Below, one piece after another: positions 2,448 to 50,120 of a DNA stretch of 64,000 nt. The stretch lies in NCBI GenBank assembly GCA_020720805.1, contig DYNZ01000004.1, positions 19,103 through 83,102 of the forward strand, written 5' to 3'. The notes beneath the pieces were generated by a model that saw only the letters and a list, made by a program, of their open reading frames with translations, had not been told where the DNA came from and did not search any database. How positions within the stretch are numbered: the first letter of the stretch is position 1; each line of letters opens with the position of its first letter. The DNA is from Leptospira biflexa (GTDB lineage: Bacteria > Spirochaetota > DYNZ01). The position numbers and the translations under genes are program-made.

Positions 2448-2870
2448 ATGGCTGCAAAGAGTGATATTCCAAATAGTGTCATTGGGGAAGGCTCTGTTTT
2501 TGAGGGCAAATTCTACATCAGCGGATCTTTACGAGTCGACGGAAAGTTTGAAGGTGAGATCGAAACAGATGAAGATATGATCATTGGCGACACCGGAAAG
2601 GTAAAGACCAATATTCGAGCTAAGAGGGTGATCGTTTCAGGAACATTGATTGGCAATATTGAAGCCACAGAAGAGGTCAGATTGCTACGCAATGGGAAAG
2701 TCATGGGTAATACCACTGCTCCGATGATTCAAATTCAGGAGGGGGTGATGGCTCAGGGAGAAATAAAAATTACTGGCAATGCCGGCTTCAAGGATGATAT
2801 CAAACGAATCATTGAGCAGGATTACAGTAGTGGTCAGATTATTGATTTTGATGCGGCGAATGCCCGATAA
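2448..2870 (+). CDS. Bactofilin (DUF583 polymer-forming cytoskeletal protein), paralog 1.
   Basis: Right-handed beta-helix bactofilin repeats: VIGEGSVFEGKFYISGSLRVDGKFEGEIET...GDTGKVKTNIRAKRVIVSGTLIGNIEATEEV. Length 140 aa. Confidence 0.8.
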   Translation: MAAKSDIPNSVIGEGSVFEGKFYISGSLRVDGKFEGEIETDEDMIIGDTGKVKTNIRAKRVIVSGTLIGNIEATEEVRLLRNGKVMGNTTAPMIQIQEGVMAQGEIKITGNAGFKDDIKRIIEQDYSSGQIIDFDAANAR

Positions 2871-2972
2871 GGGCTTAGACATTTTATAAATTTTTTTATT
2901 TATTTTTGATCTTTGCGGAGACGATGATAAAAGAGATGCATCATCTCCAAAAGATACCCTTGGATTTTTAGC

Positions 2973-4259
2973 ATGATTAAAAAAAAGTATAATATTTGGG
3001 AACAATTTTTTAAGAATTTTTCTGTAACCTACATTGGCTATGGAAAGTTTTTATACTATCATCGTAATCCCCGCACAAAGAAAATTAAATATGGAAAAAT
3101 TGATTTTACCACTCCAAAAGCGAAATTGGCACTCTCCTCCTTGATTAGTCTTTCGATCGTTTCCTCTTTTCTTTTTGTGCAGTTTCGTAAAGATACGCTA
3201 ACGGCAAAACCACATAAAACGGAAAATTCTCCTAAGATATCCCATGATAAAGATTCACAAATTACCCCCTTATTATCAGCAGAGGAGCTTCACCCAGAGG
3301 AAAAAAAGACAATCACCGGACTCATTTTAGAAGAGTCGCGTAAACTTCTGGATGCCTCAAAGCCTGGGGAGGAGTCCAGGCCAGAGCCTAAGGATAAGGG
3401 CAATACTTTAGACCAGGAAAAGCTCAAATCCCTGTCAGGTAAATCTGATATTGCTACCAGTATCGACGATGAGGATACGGAAAAATTAAAACGAAGTACT
3501 TTATTATCCGATGACACTCGCTTTATTCCTGAGCAGGAAAACAAAAAGGTAAAAATTTACCAATATACTGTCAAAAAGGGCGATAGTGTTGGATCATTGG
3601 CTCGTAAGTTTGGGATTTCTGCGGATACCATCGGAGGAAGTTCCGGAAAAATCATGAATATGGATGAAATCTGGCCTGGTTTGACGCTAAGTATTCCCAG
3701 CCGCGATGGAATTCTGTACAAGATGAAAAAAGGAGAGACATTAGCTCACATCGCGAATCGTTACGGTGTAGCATTGGCAAAAATTCTTGCCGTCAACGCA
3801 TTTGATGACCCTGATAATATTCCTGTAGGCAACCTTATTTTTCTTCCTGATATCAAGCCAAGAAACCTGTTTACAGGATTTCTCTGGCCTGTTGGGGGTA
3901 GAATTACCAGTCTGTATGGTTGGCGGCGTCACCCATTTGTAAATAGTTACCATTTTCATGAAGGTCTTGACCTATCAGCTCCCTATGTAAGCGTCAGAGC
4001 AGCAAAATCTGGAAAAGTTACCTTTTCTGGTTGGATGGGATCTTATGGTATGGTTGTCATTTTATCGCATCCGAACAACTACAAGACAATGTACGCTCAT
4101 AATTCCAGACTCTATGTTCGCGTAGGACAGTATGTTCGTCAGGGGCAGGTAATTTCGCAATCCGGCAGCACTGGGCGAAGTACAGGACCACATGTGCATT
4201 TTGAGATTTGGAAAAATAATCGACCCATGAACCCACTCGCATTACTCCGTAAAAGATAG
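2973..4259 (+). CDS. LysM-domain M23 family metallo-endopeptidase (NlpD/Csd-like). It has an N-terminal TM segment and a low-complexity linker.
   Basis: Two LysM-like modules (YTVKKGDSVGSLARKFGIS and YKMKKGETLAHIANRYGVALAKILAVN). C-terminal M23 motifs HEGLDL...MYAHNS...GSTGRSTGPHVHFEI. Confidence 0.8.
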   Translation: MIKKKYNIWEQFFKNFSVTYIGYGKFLYYHRNPRTKKIKYGKIDFTTPKAKLALSSLISLSIVSSFLFVQFRKDTLTAKPHKTENSPKISHDKDSQITPLLSAEELHPEEKKTITGLILEESRKLLDASKPGEESRPEPKDKGNTLDQEKLKSLSGKSDIATSIDDEDTEKLKRSTLLSDDTRFIPEQENKKVKIYQYTVKKGDSVGSLARKFGISADTIGGSSGKIMNMDEIWPGLTLSIPSRDGILYKMKKGETLAHIANRYGVALAKILAVNAFDDPDNIPVGNLIFLPDIKPRNLFTGFLWPVGGRITSLYGWRRHPFVNSYHFHEGLDLSAPYVSVRAAKSGKVTFSGWMGSYGMVVILSHPNNYKTMYAHNSRLYVRVGQYVRQGQVISQSGSTGRSTGPHVHFEIWKNNRPMNPLALLRKR

Positions 4260-4270
4260 GAAAATTTTTT

Positions 4271-4582
4271 ATGGAGCAGTTTCCGGCAAAAACCGGCGAT
4301 TCTATCATTTCAAATCAGATCGAGATTCCGCAAGGGGAGAAAATTGCCATCACCGACCATGGATGGGAAAGCCGTGGTCTGGAATTGGTCTGTCCACAAT
4401 GTGCCGTTTCCTCCCAGGATGTACTATTGCGGCCACGCAAAAAAAGAGGAAAGGACAGAGAGGGAATTGAAAGAGAGTATATCATCGGGTATCAGCCCTT
4501 TTCGTTATGTCCTCAATGTAAAATCGAAATCTCCGGATCAGAATTTTTTTGTTTTCCTTTTCTGCTATCCGCGATCGAATAA
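4271..4582 (+). CDS. Small zinc-ribbon hypothetical protein.
   Basis: 103-aa ORF with two CPQC motifs about 40 aa apart. Weak SD (aggaaaa) upstream. Its stop lies 3 nt before the TTG start of the next gene. Confidence 0.4.
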   Translation: MEQFPAKTGDSIISNQIEIPQGEKIAITDHGWESRGLELVCPQCAVSSQDVLLRPRKKRGKDREGIEREYIIGYQPFSLCPQCKIEISGSEFFCFPFLLSAIE

Positions 4583-4585
4583 GCC

Positions 4586-5884
4586 TTGGAATTAAATCAG
4601 GAGCAAAAAAAGGTCGTCTATTCGCCGATTGGCTGGAAACGTCTGCTAGCTTGCGCCGGATCCGGAAAAACAACCGTCCTCATCCAACGGGTTTTGTACC
4701 TCATATCCCAAGGGATGAAACCCAGCCGGATATTACTTATCACATTTACCCGCAAATCTGCACGGGAGATGCGATTACGGCTGCGTAGAATGCTGCCTGA
4801 TGGTTCCGAGTATCCCTGGGCTGGTACCTTCCACTCCCTGGCATTTCAGTTATTGCGCAGTTATAACACGATAGCCGATTACTCTCTGCTAAAGGATGGG
4901 GAGGAGGAGGAACTCAAAATGAGCATCGCTTCTCTCTATCAAAATAAGTTATTGTACATCCCTTATGATCTTTTAGCGAACATTAGAAAGCAAAGCGGAC
5001 TGCCTCTTTTTGTGAAGAATATTTATGAAGATTTCTCGCAGAAATTTCATGAGACCAAACGAACGCGCAAACAGATTGGTTTCGATGATTTTTTGCCACT
5101 TCTGTTGAAAGAATGGCAAGAAAATGAAAGTTATAGAAAAGATTTTTCAAATAGATTTGATGCAATTCTAGTAGATGAGTTCCAAGATACCAATCCCGAG
5201 CAGATCGAATTTTTGCAGAAATTTTTAATGCGAAGTCACGATTTTCTTGCTGTTGGTGATGATTGGCAGGCTATATATGGATTTCGTAATGCGGATATGA
5301 CAGTGTTAACCAGGTTCGAAAAATTTTTTCCAAACAGCAAAACATTTTTTTTAACCATGAACTATCGCTCAACTCCTCAAATTATACAAACAGCGAATCG
5401 AGTTTTGGCGTTAAATCGTGAAAAGGTGAAAAAAAAGATGAAGTCTGTTCTACCTGCCGGTTCTGAGGTCCATTTTTATTTTTTTGAGAATAGGAATGAG
5501 TTGCAAAAATGGATATCGGATGCCTGGGTTATGGGAACCAAAATCAGTAAAGAAAAGAAAACAATTTTATGCAGAACAAATGTGCAGTGCAATTTTTTTC
5601 TTCCCGCAGAATCGGAGACGGTAAGTGCTATGACGATCCATCAGGCAAAAGGTTTGGAATTTGATCATGTGCTTGTGGCCGCTTTGGAAGACCATGTTTT
5701 CCCGCATAGGGATGCGGATATCGAGGAAGAACGCCGTCTGCTATTCGTGGCACTTTCCCGGGCAAAAAAAAAGCTGGAGATCGGAATTATAAAAAGCCAT
5801 TTGTCGGTAGAAAAGCAGTTTTCGCGCGAATTGGGTTACGGAATCGTTAACCCTTTTGCATACTCTGAATTTGCTGAATCATAG
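4586..5884 (+). CDS. Compact UvrD/PcrA-like superfamily-1 helicase. It is 432 aa, and the 1B/2B accessory domains appear largely absent.
   Basis: All SF1 motifs sit in compressed order: Q (LNQEQKKVV), I (AGSGKTT), Ia (TFTRKSAREM), II (VDEFQD), III (GDDWQAIYGFRNAD), IV (NYRST), V (IHQAKGLEFDHV), VI (EERRLLFVALSRAKKKL). TTG start. Confidence 0.7.
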   Translation: MELNQEQKKVVYSPIGWKRLLACAGSGKTTVLIQRVLYLISQGMKPSRILLITFTRKSAREMRLRLRRMLPDGSEYPWAGTFHSLAFQLLRSYNTIADYSLLKDGEEEELKMSIASLYQNKLLYIPYDLLANIRKQSGLPLFVKNIYEDFSQKFHETKRTRKQIGFDDFLPLLLKEWQENESYRKDFSNRFDAILVDEFQDTNPEQIEFLQKFLMRSHDFLAVGDDWQAIYGFRNADMTVLTRFEKFFPNSKTFFLTMNYRSTPQIIQTANRVLALNREKVKKKMKSVLPAGSEVHFYFFENRNELQKWISDAWVMGTKISKEKKTILCRTNVQCNFFLPAESETVSAMTIHQAKGLEFDHVLVAALEDHVFPHRDADIEEERRLLFVALSRAKKKLEIGIIKSHLSVEKQFSRELGYGIVNPFAYSEFAES

Positions 5885-7391: not shown

Positions 7392-7605
7392 GCAAGTTTG
7401 TCCATCTTAAAATACTTCCAAGCGTATGCTACGCTATATAACTATCGGATTTGCGCAAGGTAAAAACAAACCGCAAATAGGAATTATGATGCAGGCTAAA
7501 TGCAAAAGTGGAGGAATAATTAAAACAAGGGAATGTTCTTTGATTGACAAATAGAGCGATTGAAAAACAATTTCCAAGTAATGAGTTCATCGTTGGAGGC
7601 GGAAA

Positions 7606-7947
7606 GTGGCTCTGGATTCAAAAAAAAAGGGAAATGTTGTTATTGTTTACCTGAAGGGCAGGCTTGACGTTCATCTATCTGCTGATGTTGAAAGTGACTT
7701 AAATGTGCTGATTGAGAAGGAAAAGGGTTCGAATTTTCTTTTAAATCTAACAGATGTGGAATATATGAGTTCCAGTGGATTGCGTATTTTTGTGGCAACT
7801 ATGAGGATTTTGAAAGAGCATGGACGGCAGTTAAAGCTTTGTTCATTGAATAGCGCTGTCAAAAAGATTTTCGAAGTTGTAGAATTGATGGATATGTTTG
7901 ATGTAGAGGAAACGGAAGAGGCTGCGCTCAAATCTTTTGGGGTTTAG
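7606..7947 (+). CDS. STAS-domain anti-sigma factor antagonist (SpoIIAA/RsbV-like).
   Basis: 113 aa. Conserved phosphorylatable region LTDVEYMSSSGLRIFV. GTG start with GGAGG 7 nt upstream. Confidence 0.75.
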   Translation: MALDSKKKGNVVIVYLKGRLDVHLSADVESDLNVLIEKEKGSNFLLNLTDVEYMSSSGLRIFVATMRILKEHGRQLKLCSLNSAVKKIFEVVELMDMFDVEETEEAALKSFGV

Positions 7948-7996
7948 ATCAATAGCTGGGGCATTGCGTCCGCAATAGCCCCATCGTGATTTCATT

Positions 7997-8722
7997 TTAC
8001 CAGTTGTCGGATTGCCTATCGGTATACTTTGTTCTGACAATCGCTGTTACATCATCTAGATAAACATAACTCCACTGGTCATTCGTTGTAATGTTTCCTG
8101 GATTGAAAACAAAGGAGACAATTCTTAATTTGCTCTTTTGATTGAGAAAATGGTCTTGTTGTTTAACATGTGAGGGAATTTTAATCGATAATTTACGCCA
8201 GCCGCGAAAATTCAATTGACCGAATGTCAGATAATGGGTGTTATCATCGCTATCTTTTACAATAATCGATAGGCGGCCTGAAAACCCTTTTCCGTACGCC
8301 CAGAGATTCAAACCATAGCAAAATTCATCGATTATAATTGGTTTTATGGGGTAAATGGCCACAGCATCCTCTTTTTTGCCGAAAACCTTAATACCCAGAT
8401 ATTTTTTTGAATCCTTAATCGGGGCTGGATAGTCAGAACGGATTTTGATGTAGGCTTGTTTGTGGCCTTCAAAACGAAAATTTACCTGGTTTGCACCATA
8501 ATCCCCCGATTCAAAGTCCTCCAGGGGCATTTCCAGGTAAATTTTACGGTCTGCTTCCCCTTTTAGATCGAGAGGGGTAAAATTTTCCTCTTTAAATAAT
8601 ACATTTTCGTCGGTTTTTCCGGTTGAACTTTTCGTTGTTTCTGTATTCTGGCCAAATCCTGTTTCCAAAATGGAGAGGGTGAGTACCAATGCAGCGCCCA
8701 GGAAGAGAGCAGTTTTTTTCAT
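7997..8722 (-). CDS. Secreted protein with an N-terminal signal peptide. Its C-terminal region resembles spirochaetal flagellar filament outer-layer (FlaA) family proteins.
   Basis: Signal peptide MKKTALFLGAALVLTLSILETGFG. By recall, the segments GLNLWAYGKGFSGRLSIIVKDSDDNTHYLTFGQLNFRGWRKLSIKIP and KLRIVSFVFNPGN...YVYLDDVTAIV resemble the FlaA motifs LDFDGWRELVWENP and IIRFVGFQI...DFVTYFKDVKLIY. No search was run. Confidence 0.5.
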   Translation of the reverse strand: MKKTALFLGAALVLTLSILETGFGQNTETTKSSTGKTDENVLFKEENFTPLDLKGEADRKIYLEMPLEDFESGDYGANQVNFRFEGHKQAYIKIRSDYPAPIKDSKKYLGIKVFGKKEDAVAIYPIKPIIIDEFCYGLNLWAYGKGFSGRLSIIVKDSDDNTHYLTFGQLNFRGWRKLSIKIPSHVKQQDHFLNQKSKLRIVSFVFNPGNITTNDQWSYVYLDDVTAIVRTKYTDRQSDNW

Positions 8723-8836
8723 GGTTGCAATCCTTGCTTACAATTTTGTTTTGCCTGATAATTTTAGAAAAAGCTATCTTATGTATTATCATCGTTTTCC
8801 TGATTTCAGGAAATCAAGTGAACCGGAAAAAATTCA

Positions 8837-9869: not shown

Positions 9870-10202
9870 ATGGAAACAAGAGTAGAGGGCAACCTTGATA
9901 TTCTCATTTTGGATGGTCGCATTGATCAGGATATGACTGATACATTAGAACGCTATCTTCAGGAGTATCTGGATACTAAACGGTTTAAACTTATTGTGGA
10001 CATGACTGCAGTTTTACATATTTGTAGCTCTGCTCTGGGGGTGCTTGTTGCAACTAAGAAAAAATTTCAAAAATACGACGGAGATATAAAATTAATTCTA
10101 ATTAACGAAAATTTAAAGCAGTTGTTTGAGATAACTATGCTGAATAAGGTTTTTGAGATATTTGAAGACCAGAAAATGGCGATTAACTCCTTTGATGATT
10201 GA
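9870..10202 (+). CDS. STAS-domain anti-sigma factor antagonist, paralog 2.
   Basis: 110 aa, typical SpoIIAA-like length and layout (LDILILDGRIDQ...VDMTAVLHICSSALGVLV). Confidence 0.75.
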   Translation: METRVEGNLDILILDGRIDQDMTDTLERYLQEYLDTKRFKLIVDMTAVLHICSSALGVLVATKKKFQKYDGDIKLILINENLKQLFEITMLNKVFEIFEDQKMAINSFDD

Positions 10203-10237
10203 TCGAAGGGAAAAAAAATCGACCAATTTAGGTTTGT

Positions 10238-11257
10238 ATGCAAATAGTACAAAAATTTGAGTTAAAGCAAATCCTCAGTCCTATTTTACCGCTTCTGGAT
10301 CATGTTGATACCTATATTCAGAATTTTATTCATACGGATCTGCGCATCTTGAATGTAAGCGCCGCCCAGATTTTTAAAAAGCCCGGGAAAAAAATCAGGG
10401 CCTCCTTTGTGCTGCTCGGAGCTGGTTTGGGGTTAATCCCTGAAGGCTCAGGAGATAAGGAGTATAAAAAAAGGTTATCAACAGCTTTGGACCTGGCTGC
10501 TGGAGTAGAGCTGGTTCATGCGGCAACTCTGGTTCATGATGATATTATCGATCTGGCAAGCTTTCGGCGCGGCGAACAAACCGTCTCGTCGGCATTCGGT
10601 AATAAGGTAGGTGTACTGGTCGGTGATTGGCTGTTTACGAGGGGTTTGGATATTGCGGCAGCGGAAAAACACCCTAGGATTCTGCCAACGCTGATTGATG
10701 CCACGCGAGAAATGGTCAAAGGCGAGCTGGCCCAGATCGAATTTTCGGGGATAAAGACCATCCAGGAAAAGCATTACCTATCTATCATCAGCGCGAAAAC
10801 CGCAAAATTTCTGGGTGCCTGCATCCAGGTTGGCGCATACCATGCAGGTATGAGTGATGAAGATGCAGATTTGCTGTATCAGTTTGGCTATTCATGTGGC
10901 ATGGGGTTCCAGATAGCTGATGACCTGATGGATTTTTCCCAAAAAAGCGTTACGGGGAAAGATGGAGCAAATGACTATTTGGATGGAAAGGTCACATTGC
11001 CTGTCATTTATCTACTTGACAAAAGTGCGGATATAAAGAAAAAACTTATTGAGCTTTTCGCGGAGCGTGATCTTGAGAAATTCGGCATGCTACAGCAGTT
11101 GGTTTATGAACATAACACTTTAGAGATGGCGCTTGCAAAAGGACGGGTCTATGTAGATCAAGGGCTTTTGGCGCTGCGGAAATTGCGTATGCGGAATCAA
11201 AACATAGTGGAGATGCTGGAAAAACTGGTTGGGTTTTTCCTGAATCGTTCGTACTAA
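10238..11257 (+). CDS. Polyprenyl diphosphate synthase (trans-isoprenyl diphosphate synthase family, IspB/HepT-like).
   Basis: First aspartate-rich motif LVHDDIIDL and second motif GFQIADDLMDF. 339 aa. Confidence 0.85.
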   Translation: MQIVQKFELKQILSPILPLLDHVDTYIQNFIHTDLRILNVSAAQIFKKPGKKIRASFVLLGAGLGLIPEGSGDKEYKKRLSTALDLAAGVELVHAATLVHDDIIDLASFRRGEQTVSSAFGNKVGVLVGDWLFTRGLDIAAAEKHPRILPTLIDATREMVKGELAQIEFSGIKTIQEKHYLSIISAKTAKFLGACIQVGAYHAGMSDEDADLLYQFGYSCGMGFQIADDLMDFSQKSVTGKDGANDYLDGKVTLPVIYLLDKSADIKKKLIELFAERDLEKFGMLQQLVYEHNTLEMALAKGRVYVDQGLLALRKLRMRNQNIVEMLEKLVGFFLNRSY

Positions 11258-11275
11258 ACAAAAGGATGCAACTCT

Positions 11276-11497
11276 ATGATATCAGAGCAAAAACAGAAAA
11301 TGTTAGATTTGTATAATCAGGGCATGAATCATTACAAGGAAAGAAATTGGTCTAAGGCCAAGGACTTTTTTTCTCAGGCGCTTACGGTAGTTCCGAATGA
11401 CGGCCCAAGCAAATTGTATGTTTATAGATGTGAACAGTATGAAAAAACATCTCCGCCAGCGGATTGGAATGGTGTTTTTATTATGACTACGAAATAG
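11276..11497 (+). CDS. Small TPR-like hypothetical protein.
   Basis: 73-aa ORF with one TPR-like helix pair (YNQGMNHYKERNWSKAKDFFSQALTVVPND). It lies between the polyprenyl synthase and bactofilin 2. Coding status is uncertain. Confidence 0.35.
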   Translation: MISEQKQKMLDLYNQGMNHYKERNWSKAKDFFSQALTVVPNDGPSKLYVYRCEQYEKTSPPADWNGVFIMTTK

Positions 11498-11508
11498 GAG
11501 AGATTGCG

Positions 11509-11892
11509 ATGGGTAAAAAATTAAGAGCTGATCTGGCAGAAGTATTAATGGATCATGGCGGAAGCATCGCAACCATTTTAGGAGAGAAAACCGAATTTGA
11601 AGGTGTTATGGAATTTGAAAATTCCATCCAGATTGATGGGATTTTTAAAGGGGAGATCAAAACACCTGGGCTGGTTGTGATTAATGATGGTGCGTTGATT
11701 AAGGCCAATATCGATGCATCGATCGTCATTCTCGCAGGTGAGGTGGAGGGAAATATCCGGGCAACGGATAAGGTGATTATCCTCTCGGGCGGTAAATTAA
11801 AAGGAAATATCAAAACGGCAAAATTGAAGATATCTGATGGGGTGGTCTTTGATGGTAATTGCGAGATGATTAAATGGGAAAAAAGCGCATAA
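11509..11892 (+). CDS. Bactofilin, paralog 2.
   Basis: Bactofilin repeats (GEKTEFEGVMEFENSIQIDGIFKGEI...NIDASIVILAGEVEGNIRATDKVIILSGGKLKGNI). ATG at 11509 is preferred over the upstream in-frame 11464 start because an AGGAGAG RBS lies 7 nt upstream. Confidence 0.8.
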   Translation: MGKKLRADLAEVLMDHGGSIATILGEKTEFEGVMEFENSIQIDGIFKGEIKTPGLVVINDGALIKANIDASIVILAGEVEGNIRATDKVIILSGGKLKGNIKTAKLKISDGVVFDGNCEMIKWEKSA

Positions 11893-28453: not shown

Positions 28454-30562
28454 ATGTCAAGTGTAGAAAGTAAAGAATCCAGATATGAAATCGAATTAGA
28501 TGGCAATACCATCGCAATAGAGACCGGCTGGCTGGCAAAACAGTCAAATGGGGCTGTGGTAGTGCGTTCTGGAGATACCGTAATTCTGGCCACAGCGGTA
28601 ATGTCCACCGAAGTCAAAGAGGGGCAGAATTTTTTTCCATTAACGGTTGAGTATAAAGAGAAATTCTATGCTGCAGGTAAAATACCCGGAGGGTTTATTA
28701 AGCGGGAAGGGAAGCCACGCGAGAAAGAGATATTGGTCTCTCGCCTAATTGATCGTCCACTACGTCCACTTTTTCCTGAGTTCTTTTTAAACGAAGTACA
28801 GATCATGACTCAATTGTTATCTGCTGATCCAAATATTCCAGCCGATGTTCTCTCTATTATTGCTTCATCAGCCTGTCTTGCTATATCGGATATACCCTTT
28901 CATGGACCAGTTGCAAGTGTTCGCGTGGGACGAATCAACAACGAATTTGTACTCAATCCGTCCTGGAAAAAGTTAGAAGAGAGCGATCTTGATCTCGTGG
29001 TAGCGGGAACAGATGTAGCTGTTTTGATGATTGAAGGGGTGAGTAAATTTGTATCTGAAGAGGATATGATCGCTGCGGTTGAATTCGCACATGAAAGAAT
29101 TCGTAAAATTTGCCAGCTGCAAAGTAAAATGGCAGCTGAAATCGGTAAACCGAAATATAAATACACTGAGATTCAACCTGACCAGAATTTAGTTCAGGAA
29201 ATTCACAACCGATTTCGCGCCCAACTTCACGCAGCCTGTTTTATTTCTGAAAAGCAGGCACGAAATGATACCATTGATGGAGTTCTCCAGGCTGCTTTAA
29301 CTGATCTGATGAAAGAATCAGATGGATCAGAAAAGGAGGCAGCGATTAAAGAGATATTTCACAATTTGGAAAAAGAGATTGTGCGCGAGGAGATTCTGGT
29401 TCATGGTAAGCGAACAGATGGCAGGGGATTGACAGATGTTCGTAATATCGATATTCGCTTGGGTTTATTGCCTCGAGCCCATGGATCAGCCCTATTTACC
29501 CGAGGTCAGACCCAGAGTTTAGGCGTGGTAACCTTGGGTACCCAAGGGGATTCTCAAAGGACAGATGATCTTGAAGGGGAATCAAGTAAGCGGTTCATGC
29601 TGCATTACAATTTCCCATCCTTCAGTGTAGGGGAAGTTCGTAAAAATACTGGGCCAGGGCGTCGCGAAATTGGTCATGGTAATTTGGCTGAAAGGGCTCT
29701 GGAAAATATCATTCCATCGAATAAAGATTTTCCTTATACCATACGATTGGTTTCTGATATCCTGGAATCGAATGGCTCTTCTTCTATGGCCTCTGTTTGC
29801 AGTGGATGCCTGGCTCTTGCTCAGGCCGGTGTACCCATACGGGAGACCGTTGCCGGTGTGGCTATGGGGCTAGTTTTGGGGAAGGATGGCAAATATGCAG
29901 TTTTAACCGATATTTCTGGCACAGAAGATCACTTAGGAGATATGGATTTCAAAGTAGCTGGATCAAAGAATGGAATTACATCCTTTCAGCTTGATATCAA
30001 GGTAGAGGGGATAACTCCTGCCATTATGAAAGCTGCATTAGAGCAGGCCAAAATTGGCAGATTTTTCATACTTGATAAAATGATTATGGCAATTCCAAAG
30101 CCATCAGATTCACTTTCCAAATATGCTCCGCGTATCAGTACGATTCAGATTCCCGTGGAAAAAATTGGCGAATTAATTGGACCTGGAGGGAGAAATATTC
30201 GAGCTATCATGGAGGATAGTAAGGCGGAGATCAATATTGAGGATAGCGGTGTTGTGACTGTCGCGGCAAGTAACCAGGAGTCGAGTGCCAGAGCCTTAGA
30301 GATGATTCGAGCTACGATTGAGGAGCTTGAGGTAGGTCGTATTTATGAGGGAAAAGTGAAGCGGATCATGGAGTACGGCGCTTTTGTGGAGGTTGGTCCA
30401 GGCAAAGAGGGTCTTTGTCATATTTCCAAGCTCGACAAACAACGTGTCCGTGCCGTGCGGGATGTCGTTAATGAGGGTGATATGATTAAGGTAAAAGTTT
30501 TAGCCATTGATGATCGTTCCGGAAAAATTGACCTATCACGAAGAGATGCTATGGAATCCTAA
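28454..30562 (+). CDS. pnp: Polyribonucleotide nucleotidyltransferase (PNPase).
   Basis: Two RNase PH domains, then KH and S1 domains at the C-terminus. 702 aa. Confidence 0.95.
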   Translation: MSSVESKESRYEIELDGNTIAIETGWLAKQSNGAVVVRSGDTVILATAVMSTEVKEGQNFFPLTVEYKEKFYAAGKIPGGFIKREGKPREKEILVSRLIDRPLRPLFPEFFLNEVQIMTQLLSADPNIPADVLSIIASSACLAISDIPFHGPVASVRVGRINNEFVLNPSWKKLEESDLDLVVAGTDVAVLMIEGVSKFVSEEDMIAAVEFAHERIRKICQLQSKMAAEIGKPKYKYTEIQPDQNLVQEIHNRFRAQLHAACFISEKQARNDTIDGVLQAALTDLMKESDGSEKEAAIKEIFHNLEKEIVREEILVHGKRTDGRGLTDVRNIDIRLGLLPRAHGSALFTRGQTQSLGVVTLGTQGDSQRTDDLEGESSKRFMLHYNFPSFSVGEVRKNTGPGRREIGHGNLAERALENIIPSNKDFPYTIRLVSDILESNGSSSMASVCSGCLALAQAGVPIRETVAGVAMGLVLGKDGKYAVLTDISGTEDHLGDMDFKVAGSKNGITSFQLDIKVEGITPAIMKAALEQAKIGRFFILDKMIMAIPKPSDSLSKYAPRISTIQIPVEKIGELIGPGGRNIRAIMEDSKAEINIEDSGVVTVAASNQESSARALEMIRATIEELEVGRIYEGKVKRIMEYGAFVEVGPGKEGLCHISKLDKQRVRAVRDVVNEGDMIKVKVLAIDDRSGKIDLSRRDAMES

Positions 30563-30609
30563 GAATAGATCTTAGGAATGAATTTTTCTTTTTTTCTGCT
30601 CGCAACAAA

Positions 30610-30625
30610 CCTGGATTCGTCCAGG
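30610..30625 (+). other. Stable UUCG-tetraloop hairpin downstream of pnp. It could be a terminator or an RNA-processing element.
   Basis: cctgga ttcg tccagg: a 6-bp GC-rich perfect stem with a ttcg loop. Confidence 0.3.
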
Positions 30626-30692
30626 TGCAGTTCTTTGAAGAGGTTTAGTCAATTAACCTTGCTTGTGTATTTCGCCAGCCCCCAATTTTTGA

Positions 30693-31985
30693 GTGGTAGT
30701 TTTCGTGAAATCTAATGAAAAAAAAATATTTATGGGAAAGCTTGCGGGGATACCCATAAATATCCTTTATGAACAGGCAGATTTTATCCCAACAGTTTCC
30801 ATGGGAATCTGGGTCAATAGCGGTTCGCGGCACGAGCAGAATGATCAACTAGGGTATGCCCACCTAGTAGAACATATGGCCTTTAAGGCTATTCCTAAAT
30901 TCGGGGCTCGCCAGGTTGCCCAGAAAATAGACGAATTAGGCGGTCACCTGAACGCCTCTACTTCCCGTGAAAATACATTTTATTACGTCACCGTCACACC
31001 TGATTTATTGATAAAGGGACTTGATCTGCTGATTCAGATCGTTCTGTTTCCTCTCTTCTCGGAAAAAGAGCTAAAGCGCGAGCAGGGTGTTATCTTAGAA
31101 GAGATCAAAATGTACCAGGATTCTCCGGATGATTTTATTCTGGATTACTTTTTAGAAGAAGTCTATAAAAAAAATAGTATTGCACATACAGAATTGGGCA
31201 ATCAAGAGAGTGTATTGGGGTGTACGATTAAAAGTCTCATGGATTTTTATAATCAGCACTACCATAGCGGCAATATTCTTTTTACCATGGTTGGCTCAGA
31301 TCCTGTTGATAAAGCTCTGGCTGCCATTGAAAAAGTATTTGAGAAATATCAAAATCTTGTTAAGCAGCCAAGATCGGTTACCAAACCTAAAAAGCCTGTT
31401 TTTCAACCTGGTTTTTATCATTTGGAAAAAGATCTGGAACAGGTACAATTTGTCGCTGCATTTCCGGCTTATGAAGTAACGAATCAACGCAATTTTGCCC
31501 TTGAGTTGCTGAATATTATGGTTGGAGGAAATCAATCTTCCCTGCTGTTTCAGTCAATACGGGAGAAAAAAGGTTTATGCTATACAATATCCTCTGCTCG
31601 GACAACATTTCTGGACTCAGGTTTTTGGGGAATTTATGGCGCAACTATGCCAGATAGGTTAGTTGTCACCCTAACAACCATGAAGAAAGAACTGGAAAGG
31701 CTTTCAAAAAAATTTTTCACTAAAGGTAATCTTTTTGCTGCAAAAAATTTCTTTAATCTGAATTTTTTAATGTCCCTTGAGTCCAGCGAATATAGAATGT
31801 TCCGGTTGGCAAAGAATTTTCTTTTGTACGGACGCCAAATTGATTATTTGGCGGTAAAACAGAAAGTGGACGCAATTTCAATGGAAGAGGTGTTGCAAGA
31901 ATATCGCGACATTGTTGATTTCCGGAAAATTGCGTTAGTCTCCCTTGGCAAAAAAACGCAGGAAATAAATGGTCATTTTACCTGA
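30693..31985 (+). CDS. M16 family zinc peptidase (pitrilysin-like).
   Basis: Inverted zinc-binding motif HLVEHMAF (HxxEH) and a downstream E. The start is ambiguous among GTG 30693, GTG 30705 and ATG 30732. Confidence 0.8.
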   Translation: MVVFVKSNEKKIFMGKLAGIPINILYEQADFIPTVSMGIWVNSGSRHEQNDQLGYAHLVEHMAFKAIPKFGARQVAQKIDELGGHLNASTSRENTFYYVTVTPDLLIKGLDLLIQIVLFPLFSEKELKREQGVILEEIKMYQDSPDDFILDYFLEEVYKKNSIAHTELGNQESVLGCTIKSLMDFYNQHYHSGNILFTMVGSDPVDKALAAIEKVFEKYQNLVKQPRSVTKPKKPVFQPGFYHLEKDLEQVQFVAAFPAYEVTNQRNFALELLNIMVGGNQSSLLFQSIREKKGLCYTISSARTTFLDSGFWGIYGATMPDRLVVTLTTMKKELERLSKKFFTKGNLFAAKNFFNLNFLMSLESSEYRMFRLAKNFLLYGRQIDYLAVKQKVDAISMEEVLQEYRDIVDFRKIALVSLGKKTQEINGHFT

Positions 31986-40877: not shown

Positions 40878-40891
40878 ACCGATCGAAATCC

Positions 40892-41575: not shown

Positions 41576-41595
41576 GTTGCTCTCTCCATTTTCTG

Positions 41596-43301: not shown

Positions 43302-43612
43302 AGGTTTTCATCCATCTGTAACTCTCGTGTATCCCAAAAAATGGATTGCAGTGAGAGGATTTCAAATCCGCCGGCACTTTCAGCGTAATCTTCAAAATAG
43401 GAAACGAGTTTATTTGCTTCGTCTTGATTGTGAACAAGAGATGCGGCTATGATCTGCGTGCGTTGCCATTTGTCCTGAAACCCATCTTCTCGAATCGAGA
43501 TGTGAAATTTTTCCTGAGAGGAGGCTATGATGGATTTAACCCGCTTTCTTTTTTCTTTGAGGGAATGGCATTCAGGCAGGAAAATATCCATCGTGATCAG
43601 GTTAATCAACAT
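43298..43612 (-). CDS. DUF503 family protein (YlxP-like).
   Basis: 104 aa with the DUF503 signature (PECHSLKEKRKRVKSI...FHISIRE...QDKWQRTQI). Confidence 0.7.
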   Translation of the reverse strand: MLINLITMDIFLPECHSLKEKRKRVKSIIASSQEKFHISIREDGFQDKWQRTQIIAASLVHNQDEANKLVSYFEDYAESAGGFEILSLQSIFWDTRELQMDENL

Positions 43613-44432: not shown

Positions 44433-44549
44433 CGATACTTTGATCTTTCCTCGATTGTTTCATAAAAATTTGGCAAGGCATCAAGAAGAGATCAAGAAAC
44501 AACGGGAAGAAAAATCAAGCATAATATCTTGGAAATGTTTGGAGCAAAA

Positions 44550-45914: not shown

Positions 45915-46010
45915 ATAGACTGATTTAATCAGGGATTCCTTAACTTGGCAGAGATGAAAAATAACGTATATTTCCTACTCTTAAAATTTATTTCAGAATC
46001 ATGACTTAAA

Positions 46011-48413
46011 TTAGTCTATCATGTAATTAACATAATTGGCAAATATTTTTTTATAATACTCTCTGGTTTCCAGAAATGGTATTGTTTCCCCTAGTAACAT
46101 GACGTTTTCCGAACTGTAACGTCGTTCCCAAATTATTGCAGTACCTGGTCCAGCATTATAGGCACTGCTAAGCCAGAGAAGATTTCCTCCAAACCGGCGG
46201 TTTTGCTGTCTGATATAATTAGTTGCGGAGAGGATGGAAATTTCTGGATCATTCAGGTTGGGGGGATCAAAGCCGAGTCTTTTTGCGATCGGTTGCCCTG
46301 TTAGGGGCATTAATTGCATCAAACCTATTGCCCCCGCAGAGGACGAGATACGTTCGATAAAGGCTGATTCTGCTTTCATGATCGCCCAAATTAACTCTGG
46401 ATCCACATGAAATCTGGATGAAGCAGATTCTACGATATTTTTATATGGCTTGGCAAAGGCGCTCTGCTTAAGAATTTTTTTCAATGTTCCTGAACATATT
46501 CGATAATTTCCATGGGTTTTGAAAATTTTTAGTGCTTGCAATAAGCTCTGATCGGCATCGGAAAGATGGCTACTCAGGCTCATGAGCAAAAGATGATGCT
46601 GTTCTTTGGAGAGATTTCTTTCTAGGATATCATCGGCTATTTGGTATAATCCAATTTTTGCAAAGATTCCAGCATCAATCGAGGGAGAGTTTTTTCCCTC
46701 AAAGATTTTAGACAAATCGGGCAAAAGAATATCATTTTGGGGGCAATGTTGTTTGTATGAGAATGGGTAGGAAATGATCTCCTGCTGTAACCCTGGCATT
46801 GCAATAGCCCTGTTAACATCATCATTCAGATAGTGGAATAGAGGTTTACTTGCAAGGAGGATGTTGAGTTTTTCCAAATAGCGAACGGTACTATCAGATA
46901 AGGTAAGGTTGCTTTTTTGCAGAATAGGGTTGGTTTTATCTTTTAGCAAGCTTGTAAATTTTTTTCTATTGTTGTTCTGAAGGTAGATTGCAGCCAATAG
47001 TGAATAGTAACTGTAATGATCTCGCTGTAGTAAAGGGTAAAGATAGTAGCTAAGATTTTCGAAACGGTTGGCTCCAAGCGAGATTGCTGACCAGAATAAA
47101 AGTCGTTCTGTTAGCTGATGAGGAGGAATATTTTTCCATAACTCCTTGCTAAAGGAGGCGGCTTTGATCCAATCCTGGTTTTTTATAAAATGAAAAATAT
47201 GGTGCCAATAGACGTTATCAATATATGGACGGCTGCTTCTATCTTTCAGAAATATTTGAAAACTCTCATGGAGGATTGAATTTGAGTTAATCGGTCCGCG
47301 TGAAGCTAATGTGACCAGTAACTGCAATTTTGTGAAAAATTCACCCTTGTAAGAGTGTTTATTGAATAGGGTGAGTATATCGTTTGCTTGTGAATAGAAA
47401 AGTCTATATTTTTTTTTCTGCAATAATCTTCGTTGACTATTGATAAATATTGTTCCGGCTTCTTGCTGATTTTTCTCCCAAATTTTTTCTGCCAATACAG
47501 CTGGCCAAGTTGTGTCGATAAAAAAATTTCTCTGCTCTAAACGGGCTTGCAAAAATAGTATATCCTGGTCTCGAATAGCAATACTATCAAGAATTTGTTT
47601 CGCTTCATTTTTTAATCCTGATTGAAACAAAATAATGGCAGCTTGGCAAAGAATGGATGGCTCCTGGCGAAATTCTTTGGAATTTTTCGCAATTTCACGG
47701 GACGCAATCTTTTTCATCCAGAATGGGTTTTCGCCCTGTAGTATTATTCGGTATTGATCGACTGCTTTTTGAGATTGTCCTTGCTTGTTATAAATTGTGG
47801 CAAGTTTTAGGCGATTCACGGTAAAACGTTCTGCCAGATGATGAAATATCGCCGATGCTTTTTCGTATTGTTTTTCAAAAATTAATTTTTCGCCAGTTAG
47901 ACGCTGAAATTCATTTGATAGAAACGGGTTTTCCACATCAGAAAAAAGATTGATTACAGCCATGCTGCCGTTGTACAAGCCAAAATCCTGAAGAATATCG
48001 CTGATATAGATAGCGGCGTAAGGTGCCAGGGGAGAAAGTGTAGTTGTTCTCATGTATGTTACAATTTCCTGATTTGCGATACGCTTTGGTGTAGAGTCTC
48101 CCTTTTGGGCGGATGCAGATTTCAGAAAAGCGAACAGTGCTTCCTTCTTTTGGTTTTGTTTCCATAAGGCGTAACCTTCCAGAAAGGATAAGGCGTAATG
48201 TTTGGATGACTGTCTTTTTAGGGCTGCGGCAACCGGTATCCACTGCTCCTGCTTTACCCAGGATCTGATTTTCGGGTTTAAATAGATTTTCTGCCACTCT
48301 TGAAAATCGATAGCTTTGATTTCACCTCGCCCTGAACAACTTGCGGATGAAAGGAAGAGCAAAAGCGTTAAAAGCACCATAAAAAAGGTTGATTGTAAGG
48401 TAGTTTGATTCAT
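46011..48413 (-). CDS. Soluble lytic murein transglycosylase (Slt70-like): a superhelical N-terminal domain plus a C-terminal SLT domain.
   Basis: Signal peptide. Long alpha-helical repeat region. C-terminal SLT catalytic motifs ES.F......S.AGA.GLMQLMP and AYNAGPG. 800 aa. Confidence 0.8.
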   Translation of the reverse strand: MNQTTLQSTFFMVLLTLLLFLSSASCSGRGEIKAIDFQEWQKIYLNPKIRSWVKQEQWIPVAAALKRQSSKHYALSFLEGYALWKQNQKKEALFAFLKSASAQKGDSTPKRIANQEIVTYMRTTTLSPLAPYAAIYISDILQDFGLYNGSMAVINLFSDVENPFLSNEFQRLTGEKLIFEKQYEKASAIFHHLAERFTVNRLKLATIYNKQGQSQKAVDQYRIILQGENPFWMKKIASREIAKNSKEFRQEPSILCQAAIILFQSGLKNEAKQILDSIAIRDQDILFLQARLEQRNFFIDTTWPAVLAEKIWEKNQQEAGTIFINSQRRLLQKKKYRLFYSQANDILTLFNKHSYKGEFFTKLQLLVTLASRGPINSNSILHESFQIFLKDRSSRPYIDNVYWHHIFHFIKNQDWIKAASFSKELWKNIPPHQLTERLLFWSAISLGANRFENLSYYLYPLLQRDHYSYYSLLAAIYLQNNNRKKFTSLLKDKTNPILQKSNLTLSDSTVRYLEKLNILLASKPLFHYLNDDVNRAIAMPGLQQEIISYPFSYKQHCPQNDILLPDLSKIFEGKNSPSIDAGIFAKIGLYQIADDILERNLSKEQHHLLLMSLSSHLSDADQSLLQALKIFKTHGNYRICSGTLKKILKQSAFAKPYKNIVESASSRFHVDPELIWAIMKAESAFIERISSSAGAIGLMQLMPLTGQPIAKRLGFDPPNLNDPEISILSATNYIRQQNRRFGGNLLWLSSAYNAGPGTAIIWERRYSSENVMLLGETIPFLETREYYKKIFANYVNYMID

Positions 48414-48753
48414 GAGGCAGTTTACTTTCTATTTTTTAAAAATAGGGCATGGTGAGATCAAAAATTTGGTTATAAATAGGTTTTCATGTTGTAGTGTTTG
48501 CTATTAACAAGAATAAACCGGTTTCCCTTATGGTCATGCTACCCAAATTAACTATTTATATAGCACTTTAGCGCTGCAGGCTTTGGGAGACCAATTTATT
48601 TATGACAATTATGCCAGAAAGAGCGAAGAGCTCTTTCTGGGCCATGTAAATCTAAAACATTTACAAATTTTTATCGTATAATCTTAAAAGAATGAGAGAA
48701 TCATACCGAAAAAAATTTGTTTTTTATTGCCTTTTTCTGTAAATATGGTTTTT

Positions 48754-48811
48754 ATGTATCCAGACTAGTTCGGATACATAGCAATGAAAGTGGAAAAAAC
48801 ACTTTCATTGC
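48754..48811 (+). promoter_or_regulatory. Two tandem perfect hairpins in the 451-bp intergenic region upstream of the hypothetical/bactofilin/pdxA gene string.
   Basis: Hairpin 1 is atgtatcc (10-nt spacer) ggatacat, an 8-bp stem at 48754-48779. Hairpin 2 is gcaatgaaagtg (loop gaaaaaa) cactttcattgc, a 12-bp perfect stem at 48781-48811. No upstream co-directional gene is present for them to terminate. Confidence 0.3.
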
Positions 48812-48864
48812 AGAATACAACGATCCAAACAGGAATTCAACTATTTTTCTTATTTTAATGGTCT

Positions 48865-49611
48865 ATGGGCACTGATTTACACAAAGAAGAGATTGCGCGT
48901 ATCGAAGAGGTGGCTCACGAGCTGGCATTAATTTTAAACACAGTAAAGAGTCCTGCTCAGATAAGCCGTATCCAGAGGAACCTTGAATCATTTAGTAATC
49001 GATATAAGGAGTTGACAGGGAACGATTTATCGGAGACAATTCTCTCTAAATCGTCCGATTCAAGCCAGGTTTTAACAAAAAGCAGATTTCTGTCTAAAAT
49101 AAGAATTGAGCGTGCCTCCCCTCATTGTGAGTACCATGAGATAAATCTAATCTCATCCATTGTTAAAGAGTTTGAGGTCAACTACTGGAGCCTTCTTAGC
49201 GACAGGCATATAAAGCTGGATTACTCAACGGCATCGGAGCGGGACTCCTATTTTACCAAGCTGGAAGAGTTCAAACGCAACTTAAAATTGATCCTGGAAA
49301 ATATTGAAGAGGCGCATCGGACCCAGTCTCGTGAATATCTAGCAAGATTAAGAACGATGCGTATCAAACAGGAGAGGCAAATATTGCTTGAATTTCATGA
49401 TTTCTTTCGTTCTATCAGTCAGTTTCTTGAAAAAATTGTCTTGAATCTTGATGAGGGGAGCAATATCGTACTCAATTCCGACGAAATGGTCACCTATGAC
49501 CGTCATGATGGAAAACCTTATTTTAAAGGGAAAAGTGTTGCTGAGGCAGTGCGTATGATTTATGAGTTTACAAAGGAGTCCGCAGAATCGATCCGGGTTC
49601 CGGATCTATAA
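48865..49611 (+). CDS. Hypothetical protein, predicted alpha-helical, with no recognisable domain.
   Basis: 248-aa ORF on the same strand, 57 nt upstream of bactofilin 3. Coding-like composition. Confidence 0.55.
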   Translation: MGTDLHKEEIARIEEVAHELALILNTVKSPAQISRIQRNLESFSNRYKELTGNDLSETILSKSSDSSQVLTKSRFLSKIRIERASPHCEYHEINLISSIVKEFEVNYWSLLSDRHIKLDYSTASERDSYFTKLEEFKRNLKLILENIEEAHRTQSREYLARLRTMRIKQERQILLEFHDFFRSISQFLEKIVLNLDEGSNIVLNSDEMVTYDRHDGKPYFKGKSVAEAVRMIYEFTKESAESIRVPDL

Positions 49612-49667
49612 ACGTATTTCAGGAAAAACATAATTCATGATAAGAGTGAATCAATAAAGGTAAAGAT

Positions 49668-50120
49668 ATGGCATTAAGTAGAACATCTTCAGAAATGGTA
49701 AATAGCTCTATCGGAGAGGACTCCTTCTTCATGGGAAGATTCCATATCAACGGATCTCTCCGGGTGAATGGACGGTTCGAGGGAAAAACGTTGCAGGCTG
49801 AGCAGTTATATGTTGGCGCAACCGGAAAGATCAAAACGAATATTCGCGCTGTTTCCGTGATTGTCGAGGGAATGATCATAGGCAATGTAGAAGCCAGCAG
49901 CCGAGTTATGCTTTTGCCGACAGCCCGCATTCTGGGAAATATTAAGACTCCGGAATTGATAATCCAGAATGGGGTAATCCTCGAAGGGCAGGTTACCATA
50001 ACTCCAAGCCAGGATAGTTCAGCAAAGGAGATGATTGAATCTGAGTTTGGTGATGATTTTATTCCTCAGGTCTCCCTTTTTTCTGAATATCATGATCCGA
50101 AAAAACAGAAAAAGAGTTAA
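49668..50120 (+). CDS. Bactofilin, paralog 3.
   Basis: Bactofilin repeats (SIGEDSFFMGRFHINGSLRVNGRFEGK...TGKIKTNIRAVSVIVEGMIIGNVEASSRV). The stop overlaps the pdxA start (TAATG). Confidence 0.8.
   Translation: MALSRTSSEMVNSSIGEDSFFMGRFHINGSLRVNGRFEGKTLQAEQLYVGATGKIKTNIRAVSVIVEGMIIGNVEASSRVMLLPTARILGNIKTPELIIQNGVILEGQVTITPSQDSSAKEMIESEFGDDFIPQVSLFSEYHDPKKQKKS

Follow-up and report, generated by a model that had tools for sequence, protein, structure and literature searches.

The window analyzed here is the whole of a 64-kb stretch of contig DYNZ01000004.1, and it contains three genes encoding bactofilins, which we refer to as Bac1, Bac2 and Bac3 in window order. They lie on the forward strand where the initial annotation had located them, and each is found in the company of different genes (Table 1). 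All three predicted products match the Pfam family PF04519 (InterPro IPR007607; 85.5–95.0 bits; the cutoff is 27.9 bits, and the profile has 98 positions), in each case over its full length with E values of 1e-24 to 1e-27 and with no competing Pfam family. Searches of the PDB match each of them to 2N3D (Caulobacter crescentus BacA) and 6RIA (the Thermus thermophilus bactofilin) over about 95 residues, constituting the whole beta-helix domain, with E values of 4e-6 to 2e-9, and to no other PDB family. A six-frame scan of the window using a hidden Markov model (HMM) built from the three sequences reveals no fourth bactofilin.

Table 1. Positions of the bactofilin genes, their neighbors and other features of the window (aa, amino acids; ORF, open reading frame).
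Feature	Coordinates	Strand	Product and matches
Bac1	2448-2870	+	140 aa; PF04519 92.3 bits, E 2.4e-26, profile positions 1-97 of 98
LysM-M23 peptidase	2973-4259	+	428 aa; Peptidase_M23 115.7 bits, LysM 65.1 bits
TPR73	11276-11497	+	73 aa; TPR_2 25.1 bits (cutoff 27)
Bac2	11509-11892	+	127 aa; PF04519 95.0 bits, E 3.4e-27, profile positions 1-98 of 98
SLT lytic transglycosylase	46011-48413	-	800 aa; PF01464 SLT
hyp248	48865-49611	+	248 aa; soluble, predicted all-helical; no family
Bac3	49668-50120	+	150 aa; PF04519 85.5 bits, E 3e-24, profile positions 2-97 of 98
pdxA	50120-51232	+	370 aa; 4-hydroxythreonine-4-phosphate dehydrogenase family, PF04166 256.4 bits (cutoff 27)
Membrane protein	51237-51671	+	144 aa; polytopic by hydropathy; no family
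Zinc-ribbon-like protein	4271-4582	+	103 aa; two CxxC pairs; no family match
Short UvrD-like helicase	4586-5884	+	432 aa
STAS-domain protein	7606-7947	+	
FlaA-like protein	7997-8722	-	PF04620
STAS protein	9870-10202	+	
Polyprenyl synthase	10238-11257		
pnp-M16 run	28454-31985		
M16 peptidase	30693-31985		
ORF	53212-54891	-	559 aa; no Pfam match on record
ORF	55076-57103	+	675 aa; no Pfam match on record

The three proteins are only distantly related to each other, with pairwise identities of 37% (Bac1 and Bac2), 46% (Bac1 and Bac3) and 31% (Bac2 and Bac3), whereas the nearest homologue of each is 74–79% identical. The next relatives, at about 55–68% identity, are from metagenome-assembled genomes (MAGs) designated as Spirochaetes, Spirochaetota, Leptospirales or Leptospiraceae, and these are followed by proteins of Leptospira at 48–57%; the best named relatives of the window proteins are Spirochaetota and Leptospirales MAGs, at 59–79% identity. 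Bac1 has its best matches, in Spirochaetota and Leptospirales MAGs, at 74% and next at about 65% identity, Bac2 is 48–50% identical to proteins of Leptospira spp., and Bac3 is 57% identical to a 147-residue Leptospira bactofilin. A single 90%-identity cluster of this last orthologue, which includes Q8F7Z3_LEPIN, covers pathogenic, intermediate and saprophytic Leptospira species. The initial annotation had proposed a spirochete-like organism, and these homologues together with a FlaA match support that assignment, the lineage being an uncultured one outside Leptospira whose nearest relatives are MAGs labeled as Leptospirales; the abundance of STAS and TPR proteins to which it also appealed is not needed for it.

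Bactofilins from the window and elsewhere were labeled by gene context alone and placed in a neighbor-joining (NJ) tree of 86 sequences (107 bactofilin-domain columns, 200 bootstraps), in which all four of the context-defined groups are monophyletic. Group A, in which the bactofilin gene is followed by an M23 peptidase gene (Bac1 in this window), is recovered in 197/200 bootstraps; group B, in which the bactofilin follows a small TPR gene (Bac2), in 187/200; group C, in which the bactofilin is followed by pdxA (Bac3), in 200/200; and group D, in which the M23 gene precedes the bactofilin and which has no member in the window, in 197/200. Groups A and C are sisters (188/200 bootstraps). Because the identities are only 31–46% and the genes fall into separate clades with support of 187–200/200, the three genes are, by these sequence measures, ancient paralogs and not recent duplicates of a tandem type. 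The mean identity across the bactofilin domain is 80% within group C and 50% within group B, which suggests that the pdxA-linked lineage is under much stronger constraint.

The gene downstream of Bac1, separated from it by 102 nucleotides (nt), codes for a LysM-M23 peptidase, recognized in the initial annotation as an M23 peptidase; a pairing of this type has already been published, including in Leptospira and other spirochetes (PMC10945521). The product has a basic 49-residue N-terminal tail, a transmembrane (TM) segment at residues 50–71 that is the only one predicted by a hydropathy scan, a low-complexity linker, two LysM domains and the M23 domain, and it is predicted to be a bitopic peptidoglycan endopeptidase with its N-terminal tail in the cytoplasm. 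No NCBIfam equivalog reaches its cutoff on this protein. The HxxxD (HEGLD) and HxH (HVHFE) metal-binding and catalytic motifs are intact and are conserved in all four of the M23 partners aligned (that of the window and three orthologues), and the same four share the motif FKN...[FV]S[VL].[YH][IL]G.G.FLY ahead of the TM helix, of which the part FS[VL].[YH][IL]G.G.FLY is compatible with a beta-hairpin, as judged from sequence alone. The order of a Bac1-type gene followed by a LysM-M23 gene is maintained in 6/6 lineages: the window, its closest relative (locus L174), a Spirochaetales MAG (L005/L006), a Leptospirales MAG (L175) and two metagenome lineages (L177 and L178).

Bactofilin genes similarly adjoin M23 genes in the BacA-LmdC systems of Hyphomonas neptunium and Rhodospirillum rubrum, and in Helicobacter pylori, where CcmA is associated with Csd1 and Csd2. 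BacA recruits the M23 endopeptidase LmdC by direct binding through a conserved beta-hairpin in the LmdC cytoplasmic tail (Pohl et al. 2024, PMC10945521), and adjacent bactofilin and M23 genes have been catalogued in 226 species as a conserved functional module; the spirochete pairs tabulated include two in L. interrogans, among which is a bactofilin-then-M23 pair like that of Bac1, two in Turneriella, and others in Treponema, Spirochaeta and Borrelia (PMC10945521). The tabulated L. interrogans pair provides indirect evidence of a Leptospira orthologue for Bac1. A study of Borrelia likewise pairs bb0246, an M23 gene, with bbbG (PMC13393453). The window pair has in common with the BacA-LmdC type a bitopic M23 protein with a short conserved cytoplasmic N-terminus, one TM segment, intact zinc-binding and catalytic motifs, and a pairing kept across lineages. 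Unlike LmdC, the window M23 protein has two LysM domains after a low-complexity linker rather than a coiled coil, and can be regarded as a LysM variant of the module; Bac1 itself lacks the MFSKKKK motif, and in the window the bactofilin gene comes first, with a gap of about 100 nt before the M23 gene. By analogy, the Bac1-M23 pair probably works as BacA and LmdC do, with the polymer recruiting the hydrolase by its cytoplasmic tail.

We also note that a rho gene follows the Bac1-type/M23 pair in the Spirochaetales MAG (L005, 11722-13149) and in the Leptospirales MAG (L175, 7806-9365). In Borrelia, bbbA, which belongs to an LbbA-like clade, is flanked by rho (PMC13393453), and the shared neighbor is a hint that Bac1 may be a member of the LbbA/BbbA clade.

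The initial annotation described Bac2 as following a STAS protein, a polyprenyl synthase and a small TPR ORF, and all of these are present. The last of them encodes a 73-residue protein, TPR73, whose stop codon is 11 nt from the Bac2 initiation codon and overlaps a GGAGAG ribosome-binding site. To determine its distribution, one genome per GTDB species was scanned with an alignment of TPR73, giving at least 535 confirmed loci, and the neighboring genes were read in the best 80 of these. In 79 of the 80 there is a bactofilin ORF about 0–190 nt to the 3′ side on the same strand, and all 79 of these bactofilins are closest to Bac2 rather than to Bac1 or Bac3. The sole exception (L036, 3754-6201) is an 816-residue ORF that carries the TPR73 module at its own extreme C-terminus and has no bactofilin downstream, and is probably a fused, cyclase form as described below; every one of the free-standing TPR73 genes (79/79) is therefore beside a Bac2-type gene. 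These best 80 loci have Spirochaetota titles, apart from L036, a MAG titled as Bacteroidota, and L028, an unclassified 'uncultured bacterium', and they include Leptospirales, Spirochaetales, Brevinematales, Treponema, Alkalispirochaeta, Marispirochaeta and Sediminispirochaeta.

The other neighbors named in the initial annotation do not share this constancy. In the Spirochaetales MAG (L005) TPR73 and Bac2 are present and the STAS and polyprenyl synthase genes are absent from the neighborhood, and in Leptospira (L010) a 74-residue TPR73 homologue, 44% identical, is directly upstream of the Bac2-type gene in an otherwise unrelated neighborhood with neither STAS nor polyprenyl synthase genes; the Leptospira orthologues of Bac2 each follow such a 74-residue homologue, that in L090 included. 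The complete series of STAS, polyprenyl synthase, TPR73 and Bac2 occurs again only in the closest relative (L174), with identities of 74–78%. The STAS and polyprenyl synthase genes are thus merely local neighbors, and TPR73 alone is a conserved partner of Bac2.

TPR73 scores below the cutoff for TPR_2 and for every other Pfam family, and has no suitable NCBIfam model. An AlphaFold2 (AF2) model built from a 35-sequence alignment, with a predicted local distance difference test (pLDDT) score of 94, has helices at residues 4–21, 25–38 and 43–57 and an extended tail at residues 58–73; the predicted fold is thus a single TPR hairpin with a capping helix, ending in this tail. The C-terminal motif is DGPSKLY..RC..Y...PP.DW.GV..M.TK, and the invariant residues of the tail and third helix are D42, P44, Y48, R51, P60, D63, W64, G66, V67, M70 and K73. 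With a profile built from 81 homologues, consensus TPR proteins in the PDB are matched at positions 12–46 only, no solved structure covering the tail being found by this search, and Foldseek with the model returns generic TPR domains (TMq 0.6–0.74).

A phmmer search of 1.84 billion cluster representatives with TPR73 gives 3,411 matches, among which are generic multi-TPR proteins. Those that match over the full length in a single stretch, at 40–52% identity, are either free-standing proteins of 65–120 residues or the extreme C-termini of proteins of 250–1,300 residues, and about 56 of the best 150 matches are long proteins aligned at their very ends. Nine long matches were tested, and all nine are class III nucleotide cyclases with a Guanylate_cyc domain, eight also having CHASE2; the fused proteins carry the source name 'adenylate cyclase', and one is from Elusimicrobiota. 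The last 70 or so residues of these CHASE2 cyclases align end to end with TPR73, including the invariant D.P...R...PP.DW.GV....K, and in truncated cyclase gene calls the final strand of the cyclase domain leads straight into the TPR73-like module. Unlike the cyclase tail, TPR73 is free-standing, occurs throughout the Spirochaetota with a Bac2-type bactofilin as the next gene, and has no cyclase domain, while those fused cyclases that were examined come from other phyla (such as Elusimicrobiota and the MAG labeled as Bacteroidota) and away from bactofilins. No cyclase gene was found in the window. TPR73 is, by this comparison of sequences, a free-standing relative of the cyclase tail and not itself a cyclase.

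Bac3 is the third gene of a longer series in which a leftward-transcribed SLT gene is followed by hyp248, a 56-nt gap, Bac3, pdxA, a 4-nt gap and a gene for a 144-residue membrane protein. The Bac3 stop codon and pdxA start codon share one base (TAATG). A metagenome scan with a Bac3 alignment yielded 80 loci whose neighbors were checked by HMM, with the counts taken over the testable loci. In these, pdxA is directly downstream of the Bac3-type gene in 62/62, mostly overlapping it, and a family of membrane proteins of about 145 residues is downstream in 42/56. The hyp248 family (hyp250) is upstream in 30/63, and at the loci that lack it the upstream genes are unrelated. The same gene order as in the window is present in Leptospira (L007-L009), in a Spirochaetales MAG (L092) and in another Spirochaetota lineage (L093), the Leptospira orthologue of Bac3 sharing the complete context of hyp250, bactofilin, pdxA and TM protein. 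With hyp248 in only 30/63 loci and pdxA in 62/62, pdxA is the invariant neighbor of Bac3, and hyp248 is a recurrent but dispensable and lineage-restricted one.

The initial annotation correctly positioned Bac3 between a hypothetical gene and pdxA, although the hypothetical protein is not unique to this genome, since homologues occupy the same place in Leptospira and many MAGs. These are 255–265 residues long (E 1e-32 in Leptospira, 1e-31 in L092 and 2e-46 in L093). No Pfam, NCBIfam or PDB match to hyp248 was obtained (the PDB profile search used 33 homologues), and a single-sequence AF2 model is all-helical with low confidence (pLDDT 54) and unusable for a fold search. A metagenome scan with a three-sequence hyp248 alignment gave 436 pattern matches, none of which was confirmed. 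The 144-residue protein has four hydrophobic windows, of which two overlap, corresponding to at least three hydrophobic stretches by a hydropathy scan; it is weakly homologous to 147-residue proteins of Leptospira (E 5e-9) and L093 (E 2e-14), and has no Pfam or NCBIfam family.

The divergent SLT gene is a further cell-wall enzyme gene linked to a bactofilin locus, and it is in the same divergent position in Leptospira (L007-L009; 3272-5521 in L007) and in L092 (992-3019), the C-terminal domain of the window protein being 37% identical to that of Leptospira. In Leptospira and L092 the Bac3 cluster continues with genes for Glycos_transf_4, dapA, dapB and a DAC-domain protein (a diadenylate cyclase, cdaA-like), a run not present in the window; after it comes ybbR in Leptospira, and the corresponding L092 ORF has no Pfam match.

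The predicted N-termini of the three bactofilins are of particular relevance to how they may be localized. The start of Bac2 is the ATG at 11509, preceded by the ribosome-binding site described above, and its homologues begin MxKK; a longer ORF from a TTG at 11464 was rejected, as it intrudes on the TPR73 gene, has no ribosome-binding site and extends beyond the MxKK at which homologues start. The Bac3 start at 49668 is backed by the family-conserved N-terminus MAL.K, and the Joint Genome Institute (JGI) gene call (protein P0198, 129 residues from Met22) is too short, having omitted 21 residues that are conserved family-wide; the C-terminal extension of Bac3, SAKDLIE.EY, is also conserved. The proteins thus begin MAAKSD (Bac1), MGKKLR (Bac2) and MALSRT (Bac3), with tails flanking the domain, and the canonical MFSKKKK is absent in all three. 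The second residue is alanine in 117/119 Bac1-family and 106/118 Bac3-family proteins (P0001-P0120 and P0198-P0317), so that the initiator methionine is probably removed in these families.

The canonical N-terminal membrane-targeting motif MFSKKKK is common but non-obligatory in bactofilins, and the N-terminal motifs of Spirochaetota bactofilins have been described as fundamentally unlike it and as possibly binding other factors (Osorio-Valeriano et al., PMC12448750). The window families differ from the canonical sequence (PMC12448750) in beginning MA.K or M.KK: their second residue is small, where the canonical start is MF.

The three paralogs are unusually tightly spaced, lying within 48 kb of each other, whereas the Leptospira loci examined have a single bactofilin gene each. 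Other genomes have some of the lineages closer still. In the Spirochaetales MAG (L005) the Bac1-M23 and TPR73-Bac2 pairs are 4 kb apart, and the Bac3 orthologue of the same MAG is about 790 genes from the other two, as estimated from accession numbers. The tightest clustering seen is in the Leptospiraceae MAG HKST-UBA14 (L019, 6001-7129), where TPR73, a Bac2-type gene and a Bac3-type gene are contiguous on one strand, the Bac3-type protein being 62% identical to that of the window. The fourth lineage (group D) is also involved: in 13/80 of the GTDB loci (L013, L018, L029, L030, L032, L034, L038, L041, L045, L049, L058, L082 and L086), many of which are Spirochaetales, its M23-bactofilin pair shares a strand with TPR73-Bac2 and precedes it by about 5 kb. 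These arrangements are consistent with an ancestral bactofilin cluster from which, we infer, the lineages have dispersed to varying degrees.

A related observation concerns the surroundings of Bac1. In one of the metagenome lineages (L177, 3592-6479) the Bac1-M23 pair comes directly after rbfA, truB, rpsO, pnp and an M16 peptidase gene. The window shares the pnp-M16 run, yet its Bac1-M23 pair is 26 kb away, suggesting rearrangement of an ancestral gene order.

We consider it probable that each of the three genes is an orthologue within a different ancient bactofilin lineage, and that these lineages extend across the Spirochaetota, each tied to a client or adaptor gene of its own; the observation in the initial annotation that each paralog has a distinct partner holds, and the partnerships are conserved far outside this genome. 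Each bactofilin would form a nucleotide-independent polymer acting as a beta-helical scaffold under the inner membrane, and, given the lack of a canonical MFSKKKK in all three, we propose that each would be positioned and given its task by a partner protein. Bac1 would bind the conserved cytoplasmic tail of the neighboring LysM-M23 DD-endopeptidase and thereby localize peptidoglycan cleavage, comparable to BacA and LmdC, and this analogy would make it the best supported of the three proposed couplings. Bac2 would act with the co-translated TPR73, with either the TPR groove or the PP.DW.GV tail functioning as an adaptor, or with TPR73 capping or regulating the polymer. Bac3, in the most conserved lineage, would share an operon with pdxA and the gene for the small polytopic membrane protein, joined in many lineages by that for the helical protein of about 250 residues; the membrane and helical proteins would be its likely anchor and adaptor, and pdxA is most likely carried along in the operon through translational coupling. 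The bactofilins of Caulobacter, BacA and BacB with PbpC, share the fold and, presumably, the architecture of the polymer, and there too each polymer would recruit a client with a cytoplasmic tail.

A more specific proposal, which we advance tentatively and regard as doubtful in its entirety, is that TPR73 serves Bac2-type bactofilins throughout the phylum as a dedicated adaptor or as a regulator of their polymers, being derived from or donated to the CHASE2 cyclase tail, that its PP.DW.GV..M.TK tail docks either on the beta-helix of the bactofilin or on a cyclase, and that the proteins of about 145 and 250 residues are the anchor and adaptor of Bac3. If true, this would represent either an unrecognized link between bactofilins and cyclic nucleotides in spirochetes or the first protein regulator of bactofilin assembly.

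Several considerations weigh against a partner for each lineage. While family membership, the age of the paralogs, the match between clade and context, and the near-invariance of the gene pairs are demonstrated, whatever lies beyond gene linkage and homology, physical interactions included, we infer. The M23 partner has LysM domains and not an LmdC-type coiled coil, and its N-terminal beta-hairpin is putative; no bactofilin is nearby in the two fused-tail cyclases examined (L036 and L176); the census counts are drawn from MAGs and metagenomes and are phylogenetically non-independent; and the NJ tree is one of short sequences with no outgroup. About half of the Bac3-type genes have no hyp248 on their upstream side, so that it cannot be essential to what that lineage does. 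Finally, we know of no link between pdxA, which encodes an enzyme of pyridoxal phosphate biosynthesis, and the cytoskeleton, and no publication in the literature searched joins a bactofilin with pdxA, so that for this pair a functional link is no more likely than operon hitch-hiking. The last two points also favor the broader alternative that the adjacencies reflect conserved operon architecture without coupling, with the bactofilins acting alone or with unlinked clients, and with pdxA, TPR73 and hyp248 as co-transcribed neighbors kept by descent; that the window is a core housekeeping region, and that pdxA in Escherichia coli is part of a mixed envelope and ribosome operon (surA-pdxA-rsmA), point the same way. 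Nonetheless, the adjacencies endure while their surroundings are shuffled across Leptospirales, Spirochaetales, Brevinematales and Treponema, which is a classic signature of functional coupling, the 79 free-standing TPR73 genes all adjoin one specific bactofilin clade, and the M23 pairing is experimentally functional in other phyla (PMC10945521). Since the pairs have survived the turnover of all the genes around them in different orders, we regard the lack of coupling as unlikely for the pairs other than that with M23.

For TPR73 there is also the explanation that it is primarily a component of cyclic-nucleotide signaling, a detached cyclase tail acting in trans, such that its linkage with Bac2 reflects bactofilin-dependent localization or control of cyclic AMP or cyclic GMP signaling and not of the cell wall. 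The full-length relationship to the extreme C-termini of proteins with CHASE2 and Guanylate_cyc domains, its recurrence in the long matches and the position of the module directly after the cyclase domain all speak for this, but no cyclase gene is present in the window or beside the TPR73-Bac2 pairs inspected, the fused cyclases examined are not near bactofilins, and no solved structure covers the tail; we judge this explanation to be decidedly improbable. That the three genes are recent duplicates arising from local expansion in this genome, with accidental neighbors, might be thought to follow from finding three copies in 48 kb, which we estimate to be far above what a few paralogs scattered at random over a few Mb would give. 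This is refuted by the low identities and the separate clades; moreover, each copy is nearer to its orthologues in Leptospira or other orders (48–79%) than to its paralogs in the window, and the distant location of the Bac3 orthologue in another MAG does not fit local expansion, leaving this reading with practically no likelihood. Similarly negligible is the chance that one or more of the ORFs encodes another left-handed beta-helix protein, such as a fragment of a hexapeptide-repeat transferase. Bactofilins and hexapeptide proteins are both beta-helical, and one Bac3-family match (P0241) bears an additional PF00132 annotation, but the full-length PF04519 matches and the restriction of PDB matches to bactofilins refute it.

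Bactofilins shape both helical and stalked bacteria, and in Borrelia BbbF and BbbG are essential organizers of peptidoglycan insertion. To our knowledge few direct bactofilin clients are known beyond PbpC and the M23 peptidases. Like the Lbb set of Leptospira and the Borrelia set of BbbA, BbbF and BbbG, the window provides an example of several anciently diverged bactofilin paralogs in a single spirochete genome. The initial annotation stated that Leptospira biflexa has five bactofilins of which one sets the helical pitch, and this corresponds to LbbA-LbbE of the Leptospiraceae, with LbbD affecting helical pitch (Jackson et al. 2018, as cited in PMC13393453). The multiplicity of spirochete bactofilin paralogs, a spirochete-wide bactofilin tree and the M23 pairing are therefore already known, and the window genes add members to known lineages. 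What appear to be undescribed in the literature searched are the near-obligate TPR73-Bac2 pair, the kinship of TPR73 to the CHASE2 cyclase tail, and the invariant coupling of Bac3 and pdxA together with the membrane-protein neighbor. The literature searched contains no publication or curated family (Pfam, NCBIfam) for TPR73, hyp248 or the 144-residue protein, although Jackson et al. 2018 may describe some of the neighborhoods.

These patterns amount to a rule across the phylum whereby the bactofilin clade predicts its neighbor: M23 after, M23 before, TPR73 before, or pdxA and a small membrane protein after. The candidate partners, which are testable in Leptospira biflexa or Borrelia, bear on how spirochete bactofilins that lack the usual targeting peptide are localized to the membrane, and the analysis also flags an uncharacterized module common to TPR73 and the CHASE2 cyclase tails.

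The remainder of the window consists of core housekeeping genes, from rpsB onwards and including nusA-infB-rbfA-truB-pnp, RNase J, FtsK, rplM, alaS, a radA-like gene, rplS and cysS. The content of guanine plus cytosine (GC) is about 41% and the GC skew is uniformly positive. An identical sequence is also present in the MAG GCA_974334805.1, in JGI metagenome 3300000234 and in run SRR1560848. Scans of the window for tRNAs and Rfam families gave no matches, and around the three bactofilin loci promoter and terminator sites are no more common than in shuffled sequence, so that operon boundaries are inferred from gene spacing only. Two divergent ORFs of 559 and 675 codons without recorded Pfam matches are followed by a gene for a 405-residue TPR protein.

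Two genes are closely spaced downstream of the M23 gene, the first, 11 nt after it, encoding the small zinc-ribbon-like protein, and the second, 3 nt further on, a short UvrD-like helicase; the trio is found again only in the closest relative (L174). Between the Bac1 and Bac2 loci, two rightward STAS genes flank a divergent FlaA-like gene. The product of the latter matches the model for the Leptospira FlaA2 equivalog weakly, with a score of only 54 bits where the cutoff is 440, and as judged by this score the window FlaA-like flagellar sheath protein is distant from its Leptospira counterparts.

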